Made by a program: the position numbers and the translations under genes | Source: an uncultured bacterium | GTDB taxonomy: Bacteria > Patescibacteriota > Saccharimonadia > UBA4664 > SCTI01 | DNA length: 64,000 bases | Reading direction: 5' to 3' | NCBI GenBank assembly: GCA_963721685.1 | Contig: CAVRJJ010000001.1 | Coordinates: forward strand, 303,950 to 367,949 | Shown: piece after piece, positions 61,645 to 62,178 of the stretch | Layout of the letters: every line of letters begins with the position of its first letter | Numbering within the stretch: position 1 is the stretch's first letter | Notes under the pieces: generated by a model | Databases searched by the model: none | What the model was told of the DNA's origin: nothing | Seen by the model: only the letters and a program-made list of their open reading frames with translations

Positions 61645-62178
61645 CGTCAGTTGACAAGATAGACACGTTATTGCTATTTACTATTAAGTCTAGATAGCCG
61701 GTGCGAAGGCATCTGACTTTGTACCCTACCATCCCCGATTTCGCACACCCTGAAGAGAGGAGGAAGCGACTTGACCAATCTCAAGCACCGCGCGTATCCG
61801 CTGCTGATCGCCGCTGTCACCGTGCTGGCCAGCACGGGCGCCGCTTTCCGGGGCAACTGACCGTCCTTGGAGCCTCGGCTCCGCTACATCACTAGATAGG
61901 GGCAGCGCGCCCGTTGAGCGCCTGAACCAAGGCGCTGTACGTGCCTGCACTCGCAGAAAGAGAAGGGAAAGCCGTGTACGGAGTACCGTTGTGGGTTGAA
62001 TGGCTGATCTACGAAACGGTCCGCCTGGGCGGCTACTTCCACGGCGAGTAGCTGGCGAACACCAACTGGGGCTTCGACCCCGCACCGCACTCGAGGGGGC
62101 GGGCTTCACGGCCCGCCCCCTCAACTATGTTCGACCAACCTTGACGCCACCCGCGTTTCCAGATACACTATCCAAGTT
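61645..62178. mobile_element. GC-rich (about 63%) noncoding island carrying end motifs related to the 38.1-39.4 kb element's terminal repeats, with an internal perfect 12-bp GC hairpin. Its right end abuts the rpmE start codon.
   Basis: The left end reads TTGACAAGATAGACACGTTATTGCTA...CTAGATAGCC. The right end reads CTATGTTCGACCAACCTTGAC...CACTATCCAAGTT|ATG, with a GAGGGGGCGGGC-ttcac-GCCCGCCCCCTC hairpin. The body has only two tiny ORFs. Confidence 0.45.

Follow-up and report, generated by a model that had tools for sequence, protein, structure and literature searches.

Two descriptions from better-known bacteria frame the locus considered here. A −10 hexamer that replaces the Shine-Dalgarno sequence directly upstream of the start codon is a recognized mark of leaderless genes (PMC4633059). 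A canonical intrinsic terminator carries a U-tract of 7 to 9 nucleotides (nt) immediately 3' of its stem, and in vitro, neither mycobacterial nor E. coli RNA polymerase terminated at hairpins lacking a U-tract (PMC3993855). Here we analyze the spacer between the genes for MTHFS (5-formyltetrahydrofolate cyclo-ligase) and ribosomal protein L31 (rpmE) in an uncultured Saccharimonadia bacterium. The stretch analyzed, called the window, comprises 64,000 nt (of the 405-kb contig CAVRJJ010000001.1, positions 303,950 to 367,949 of the forward strand). The spacer holds an insert of about 0.5 kb that is probably a decaying remnant of horizontally acquired DNA, most likely of a small foreign gene, next to which rpmE keeps its ancestral promoter.

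RESULTS

The MTHFS-rpmE spacer carries an insert absent from related loci

The spacer between MTHFS and rpmE is 555 nt long. The features of the locus are as follows.

61069-61623, + strand: MTHFS open reading frame (ORF) (NCBIfam TIGR02727, 156.5 bits; cutoff, 84.9)
61619-62134, no strand: lineage-specific insertion of ~516 bp, each junction placed to within ~6 to 10 bp, for an overall length of ~505 to 520 bp
61624-61700, + strand: AT-rich left segment of the insert (77 nt, 35% GC), with a perfect −35-like TTGACA at 61651-61656 and a weak −10 TATTTA at 61675-61680 (18-nt spacer)
62135-62140, + strand: CCAACC, probably left over from the ancestral 3' end of MTHFS (codons Q-P in the relative L084)
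62141-62169, + strand: predicted rpmE promoter, flagged by the promoter scan, with −35 TTGACG (62141-62146), N17, −10 TACACT (62164-62169), and N9 before the ATG
62179-62541, + strand: rpmE, encoding L31 of the CxxC…CxxC zinc form with a Lys/Ala/Glu-rich tail (NCBIfam NF000612, 97.6 bits; cutoff, 70; TIGR00105 also above its cutoff)
62563-62580: host rpmE terminator with a canonical U-tract, called by the terminator scan

Relatives with the same neighborhood were obtained through protein searches and contig look-ups. Those compared for their MTHFS-rpmE spacer are listed here.

L083: MTHFS 59% identical, L31 84% identical; spacer of 34 nt; the MTHFS stop codon TGA lies within the rpmE −35 box (…TCATCTTGACC…)
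L084: MTHFS 54% identical, L31 82% identical (over the first 22 residues only, where the contig ends); spacer of 34 nt, arranged as in L083
L082: MTHFS 48% identical, L31 72% identical; spacer of 625 nt with unrelated content, an HTH-like (helix-turn-helix) 108-amino-acid (aa) ORF on the minus strand

Both L083 and L084 are empty sites in which the MTHFS stop codon falls inside or directly against the rpmE −35 box. An earlier, sequence-only reading of the window had called the segment an insertion and had proposed comparing the spacer with those of related genomes. The comparison bears the claim out, with 555 nt here versus 34 nt in L083 and L084 and 625 nt of unrelated sequence in L082; neither blastn nor tblastx found similarity between the L082 spacer and that of the window. 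By synteny with the nearest relatives available, then, the ~0.5-kb segment is an insertion. A species-representative genome collection searched with MTHFS yielded distant homologues only (≤33% identity over the full length, ≤57% on short fragments) and no syntenic relative, while a metagenome search with L31 gave at least one useful relative, L086, among the matches listed.

The right junction is the sharper one. The 12-mer CCAACCTTGACG (62135-62146) equals the L084 empty site letter for letter, and a looser resemblance (TGTT..CGA) may reach to ~62128. The left junction falls near 61612-61619, where MTHFS diverges from its relatives past …RV and similarity to their 3' ends is gone after ~61618. 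The MTHFS C terminus reads …V-I-S-A-stop here versus …V-V-T-E-(T/S)-(S/Q)-(S/P)-stop in the relatives (L083, L084, and L082 compared); the insert took the place of the last MTHFS codons and furnishes a new stop.

A chimeric assembly, in which a piece from a GC-rich organism had been spliced into the contig, would also place foreign sequence between two host genes. The naming of the relatives' contigs ("contig_17805") suggests long-read metagenome assembly, and the GC-rich islands of the window include a frameshift-ridden gene (described below) of the kind that low-coverage foreign reads might produce. However, a separate Logan assembly of ERR12037361, probably built from the same reads, has a 1,963-bp contig in which MTHFS and L31 are separated by an identical gap of 555 nt, which argues against an assembler artifact. 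Both junctions lie within a few bases of the empty-site homology, which is not expected of a chimera, and the flanking genes are intact. We regard a chimera as extremely unlikely. Gene calling on the Logan contig placed no gene in the MTHFS-rpmE spacer.

rpmE keeps a promoter found in insert-free loci

Next to the rpmE ATG stands CACTATCCAAGTT (62166-62178), which consists of the last four bases of the −10 box and the 9-nt discriminator. It had been read as a terminal repeat of the insertion. It does abut the ATG, but it is part of the rpmE promoter and not a repeat; at up to two mismatches the window holds 3 matches versus 1.24 expected, a chance level. The same promoter architecture, N17 between the boxes and a short gap before the ATG, was found upstream of rpmE in the relatives.

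L083: TTGACC-N17-TACACT-N9-ATG
L084: TTGACG-N17-TACACT-N9-ATG
L082: TTGACT-N17-TACAAT-N9-ATG
L086: TTGACC-N17-TACAAT-N9-ATG
L166/L167: TTGACC-N17-TACAAT-N9-ATG
L169: TTGATG-N17-TATATT-N9-ATG, a weaker form
L170: TTGCCT-N17-TATACT-N7-ATG, a weaker form

In L168, a TTGAC lies inside an over-extended L31 call. At least seven loci of relatives, all of them without this insert, retain the promoter in register, and the upstream neighbors of rpmE in the relatives' loci are of five kinds (MTHFS, an HTH-like ORF, a 127-aa ORF, atpB, and rpsB). This comparison shows the predicted promoter TTGACG-N17-TACACT to be ancestral to rpmE and of the leaderless type.

Neither a Shine-Dalgarno sequence nor any purine-rich motif occurs between TACACT and the rpmE ATG. 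The −10 box takes that place, ending 7 to 9 nt before the start codon across the window and the relatives, and this arrangement belongs to rpmE and not to the insert. Given the −10/ATG spacing and the missing Shine-Dalgarno sequence, the rpmE mRNA would start at or within ~3 nt of the ATG, with an untranslated region (UTR) of ~0 to 3 nt; it would be essentially leaderless and would exclude the insert. Since the rpmE promoter is located downstream of the insert, the insert gives neither promoter nor 5' UTR. The sequence-only reading had assigned both to the insert, a claim contradicted by the conservation of the ancestral promoter in insert-free loci. It had also suggested predicting promoters within the element; the scan reports no consensus promoter there and flags 62141-62169 instead. 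A motif abutting a start codon can thus be the gene's own leaderless-type promoter and not the end of a mobile element.

A strict search of the window for TTGA-N17-TAnnnT-N5-10-start fitted only rpmE and a site internal to prfA, and no genome-wide leaderless pattern emerged. Separately, L31 is annotated with 146 to 150 aa in L166 (3001-3447), L168 (3001-3453), L169 (1143-1583), and L170 (2501-2950). These calls run 20 to 29 codons upstream, across the −35 and −10 boxes, and the true start is the conserved MK(T/A)GIHPE; they are over-extended because gene callers find no Shine-Dalgarno motif.

These observations bear on whether the segment belongs to a repeat family, such as one resembling miniature inverted-repeat transposable elements (MITEs), whose right terminal repeat at the ATG would provide the rpmE promoter and 5' UTR. 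Such an origin would suit an insertion relative to the closest relatives and the short complementary ends of the insert (TAAGTTGA on the left, TCAACTA on the right). Yet the promoter and the supposed terminal module are ancestral and conserved in insert-free loci, which contradicts the promoter part of the proposal. The complementarity is imperfect and spans 7 to 8 nt, the flanks share at most 2 to 3 nt (CG/CGA), and the insert ends show neither a convincing target-site duplication nor convincing terminal inverted repeats. Repeat families have multiple related copies; when the spacer was compared by blastn and tblastx with the remaining 63.5 kb of the window and with 171 fetched loci, only compositional noise and no second copy came back. 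In distant blastn searches, plasmids gave chance fragments of ≤47 nt and phages no match, and an exact search for the insert's main hairpin (see below) in viral contigs gave 0 matches. We give a mobile family that supplies the rpmE promoter hardly any credence.

The insert differs from its host in composition and holds two micro-ORFs

The window has a mean GC content of 51.2% (standard deviation, 4.5, in 400-nt windows). The core of the insert (61701-62130) stands at 62.8% GC. The figure of ~63% first given for a spacer of ~530 bp is accurate for this core, but 61645-62178 averages 59.2%. Within the insert lie two very short ORFs.

61759-61763, + strand: GGAGG, a Shine-Dalgarno-like motif 7 nt before the TTG start of ORF29
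61771-61860, + strand: ORF29, 29 codons with a TTG start, MTNLKHRAYPLLIAAVTVLASTGAAFRGN; GC by codon position, 0.60/0.53/0.83
61974-62051, + strand: ORF25, 25 codons with a GTG start; frame open from 61926, alternative GTG at 61941; GC by codon position, 0.62/0.35/0.81

GC at the third codon position (GC3) is 0.81 to 0.83 in ORF29 and ORF25 versus 0.46 to 0.55 in five flanking host genes. By base and codon-position composition, the insert is foreign to its host. The period-3 signal against shuffles has a P value of ~0.03 for ORF29, 0.016 for ORF25, and 0.001 for 61971-62092, and the 90 nt between the ORFs (61881-61970) give no period-3 signal (P = 0.69). GC at the first position exceeds that at the second in both micro-ORFs, which favors the + strand over an antisense frame sharing third positions. 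Both tiny ORFs noted in the sequence-only reading exist, but they are not the only ones there; frames of 64 and 60 aa on the + strand and of 132, 68, and 60 aa on the − strand are also present. We discount the minus-strand ORF of 132 aa as a gene: its GC by codon position is 0.68/0.67/0.56, with GC3 the lowest, and it had no Pfam match and was left uncalled on the second assembly.

The predicted ORF29 peptide, with a hydrophobic helix after its basic N terminus, resembles a signal peptide or a single transmembrane anchor. The insert could be a live, acquired micro-protein cassette, comprising a 29-aa membrane peptide (possibly type I toxin-like or a small membrane regulator) and a partner of 25 to 36 aa; transcripts reading through from MTHFS, or ones started at the weak TTGACA promoter, would express it, and the downstream hairpin would close it. 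Both ORFs are intact with coding-like codon-position composition, GGAGG stands 7 nt before the TTG start, the N terminus of ORF29 is charged ahead of its hydrophobic helix, and a stem-loop follows 41 nt past ORF25. Against this, no homologue of either peptide was found among 5.8 billion proteins or in NCBIfam, Pfam, or PADLOC; no consensus promoter is reported in the insert, the TTGACA/TATTTA pair of the left segment having gone unreported by the promoter scan; the insert is absent from all relatives examined; and another GC-rich island of the window is a demonstrable pseudogene. The ORF29 peptide, although hydrophobic, lacks the homology to a known toxin family that would place it among type I toxins. 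We consider a live cassette unlikely; if the micro-ORFs are expressed, they would represent an orphan small-protein pair.

The strongest hairpin of the insert is not a canonical terminator

From left to right, the insert contains ORF29, two hairpins, ORF25, and two more hairpins, the last of which has a 12-bp stem.

61869-61882, + strand: small hairpin GGAGCC/GGCUCC just past the ORF29 stop (folding free energy [ΔG], −10.3)
61905-61948, + strand: hairpin centered on AGCGCC-N8-GGCGCU (ΔG, −23.8; z score, −3.7)
62068-62081, + strand: short hairpin GGGGCUUCGACCCC
62093-62104 and 62111-62122, + strand: perfect 12-bp GC hairpin GAGGGGGCGGGC/GCCCGCCCCCTC with a 6-nt DNA loop, TTCACG

A perfect 12-bp GC hairpin had been described from the letters alone, and it is present at 62093-62122; its loop, given then as 5 nt, has 6 (TTCACG). 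The RNA form has 13 pairs, one of them a closing U·G, with a ΔG of −31.6 kcal/mol and a z score of −5.7. The 64 kb contain just one further perfect hairpin of ≥12 bp, so that the insert hairpin is the sole GC-rich one, and shuffles, including block shuffles, gave none. That further hairpin, at 19659-19700, is perfect over 18 bp and AT rich, with a 6-nt loop, ACTAAACAAAACAACGGC.

With 12 perfect pairs, 11 of them G-C, the hairpin has the stem of a terminator (a GC-rich stem of at least 5 bp and a loop of 3 to 8 nt). It lacks the U-tract: the stem is followed by AACUAUGUUCGA, the downstream sequence is AACTATGTTCGA, and the first 8 nt (AACUAUGU) hold only 3 U. The terminator scan did not call it, though it called the rpmE terminator at 62563-62580. 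Without a U-tract, the hairpin therefore falls outside the definition of a canonical intrinsic terminator, and it may at most stabilize or impede read-through transcripts from MTHFS. The relative L082 carries a perfect 14-bp hairpin, also without a U-tract, between the convergent MTHFS and inserted gene (ΔG of ~−31 to −32 kcal/mol over a 61-nt stretch). An equally strong tail-less hairpin in this GC-richer relative means that the hairpin style is not diagnostic of an actinobacterial donor. The actinobacterial-style, terminator-like character first assigned to the insert hairpin is not supported.

The GC-rich core might instead be a structured noncoding RNA, acting either as a small RNA or in cis at the 3' end of the MTHFS transcript. 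In global folding against shuffles, the + strand is mildly better than expected (z score, −2.84) and the − strand is not (z score, −0.78), and several local hairpins have z scores of −3.1 to −5.7. However, the terminal hairpin accounts for much of the folding signal, the period-3 GC3 composition points to coding ancestry, and an rpmE leader is ruled out, since the core lies upstream of the rpmE promoter. Rfam searches with permissive (E up to 5) and gathering thresholds, covering the whole window, the spacer by itself, and three relatives, returned nothing relevant besides noise and no match to an L31 leader, and ARAGORN found no tRNA or transfer-messenger RNA in the 64 kb. A structured RNA is very unlikely to explain the core.

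Searches for a parent gene

A word-indexed search of the 5.8 billion proteins with both micro-ORF peptides returned nothing at E ≤10. Searches of NCBIfam, Pfam, and PADLOC, which included a conceptual 93-aa protein joined across frameshifts and the antisense ORF of 132 aa, gave no match. An exhaustive HMMER search queried with the open frame of 41 aa produced two hits, P0242 (E = 1.7e-24) and P0243 (E = 1.4e-4). These were treated as chance matches and rejected as homologues, their scores being summed over 8 and 5 near-identical internal repeats, respectively. Taken singly, a repeat unit scores 31 bits (14/36 identities; P0242) or 24 bits (P0243); in a database of 1.8 billion proteins, we estimate that such scores fall well short of significance. 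P0242 itself has the appearance of a repeat protein from a eukaryote, with a cysteine-rich module at its C terminus.

Other GC-rich islets of the window

Two further islets are GC rich. The first, at 46640-47930 on the − strand (63% GC), is flanked by serS and a gene for a GNAT acetyltransferase. It represents a D-3-phosphoglycerate-dehydrogenase-like gene (2-Hacid_dh_C) at full length, the pieces of which fall in all three frames and match residues 3 to 392 of the intact homologue P0126, mostly at 56 to 65% identity (33% for the longest piece). By its reading frames, this islet is a multiply frameshifted pseudogene. The second, at 38229-39437 on the − strand, is the most GC-rich islet of the window (up to 69%). 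Its ORF has a GC3 of 0.80 and no Pfam match. The predicted product combines a signal peptide (MTRRTRK…AMAS), 22 consecutive prolines, and repeats of the Cys-rich form CxxxxCN, and it looks like an acquired secreted protein. These islets demonstrate that GC-rich foreign DNA enters the genome and that at least part of it then decays. They mark recent gene influx and could serve to trace donors.

Two observations elsewhere in the window are recorded here. A 940-aa ORF (2609-5431, + strand) bears a weak resemblance to conjugative coupling proteins of the TraD/VirD4 type (E = 7.6e-12, far below the curated cutoff), which hints at possible DNA-transfer machinery in a genome with foreign islets. The lysyl-tRNA synthetase encoded at 48468-50018 (− strand) is of class I, the archaeal type (TIGR00467, 340.8 bits), a trait that may be of use in placing the organism.

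DISCUSSION

We favor the reading that the insert is a decaying remnant of acquired DNA, probably of a small foreign gene, and that rpmE keeps its ancestral promoter. On this reading, ~0.5 kb of horizontally acquired, GC3-rich DNA would have inserted into the last few codons of MTHFS, directly upstream of the rpmE promoter. The remnant would retain the 5' end of the foreign gene, as a ribosome-binding site and 29 signal-peptide-like codons, and its 3' end, as the last 25 to 41 codons followed by a strong stem-loop, with a middle that no longer carries a reading frame. Transcription of rpmE would still begin at TTGACG-N17-TACACT, and the insert would be harmless at this operon boundary because rpmE has its own promoter immediately downstream. 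Two consequences would be passive: MTHFS would have gained a new 3-residue C terminus with its stop, and read-through transcripts from MTHFS would carry a structured, GC-rich tail ahead of the rpmE promoter.

As expected of acquired DNA, relatives lack the insert at the orthologous site, and its composition is unlike that of the host; the searches found no recognizable similarity to an intact parent gene, which a pseudogene would have. The comparisons made here show the segment to be inserted, foreign in composition, and without homologues in the collections searched, and they show the rpmE promoter to be ancestral; from them we infer the origin of the insert as a gene remnant, the leaderless start of rpmE, and the absence of a present function. 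Several points weigh against this account. With no parent-gene homologue, the remnant interpretation draws on composition and anatomy. The period-3 statistics are modest (P values of 0.001 to 0.03) and concern very short stretches. GGAGG is ideally spaced before ORF29 and both ORFs are intact, which fits live micro-genes equally well. The 35% GC of the left segment is hard to reconcile with a simple donor of high GC content, even the closest relatives are remote (MTHFS identity, ≤59%), and the leaderless start is derived from spacing.

Three unrelated inserts lie upstream of the rpmE promoter: the insert of the window, the HTH-like gene of L082, and an inverted-repeat element of L170. One could suppose that the window insert is a functional acquired two-peptide module (29 aa, membrane, plus 25 to 36 aa) with no database homologue and, more broadly, that the upstream boundary of rpmE is a preferred landing site, but we consider this quite unlikely. 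In L082 (4547-4928), the inserted minus-strand ORF of 108 aa has a weak, sub-threshold match to HTH_3. In L170, a same-sample relative with a 1.19-Mb contig, the rpsB-rpmE spacer of ~590 nt contains a perfect 22-bp inverted repeat flanking 152 nt (2192-2387). The L170 element has no Rfam match and could be MITE-like or invertible.

The biological weight of the remnant is small. It illustrates how foreign DNA fragments may lodge and decay at an operon boundary.

Comparison with known systems places the insert in none of the repeat, RNA, toxin, or terminator classes tested; it behaves as ordinary acquired DNA in decay. Like type I toxin-antitoxin peptides, ORF29 would encode 29 aa with a single hydrophobic helix, on an acquired fragment and beside structured RNA. 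Unlike them, it matches no known family, no antisense RNA was identified, and a second, unrelated micro-ORF is present. The main hairpin resembles canonical intrinsic terminators in its GC-rich stem of 12 to 13 pairs, its short loop, and its position 41 nt past an ORF stop, and it differs from them in having no U-tract, whereas the host rpmE terminator has one. The insert shares with the L31 leader RNAs of Rfam a place directly upstream of rpmE; it has no cmscan match to them, and with the rpmE promoter downstream it lies outside the rpmE transcript.

The leaderless mycobacterial promoters (PMC4633059) offer a close parallel, one that concerns the flanking promoter (62141-62178) and not the insert. 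There, starts were mapped genome-wide, whereas the rpmE start is deduced here. In both cases −35 and −10 boxes stand where a Shine-Dalgarno sequence would be; at rpmE the −10 box ends 7 to 9 nt before the ATG, conserved among orthologues. The insert itself compares best with decaying acquired DNA in genomic islets. At ~0.5 kb it is far smaller than classical islands, it has no identified parent gene, and no integrase, tRNA, or repeat marks its site. Like such DNA, it is lineage specific, is atypical in base and codon-position composition, and occupies a point between operons where synteny breaks; short ORFs remain at its apparent gene ends, and another GC-rich island of the same window is a proven pseudogene.

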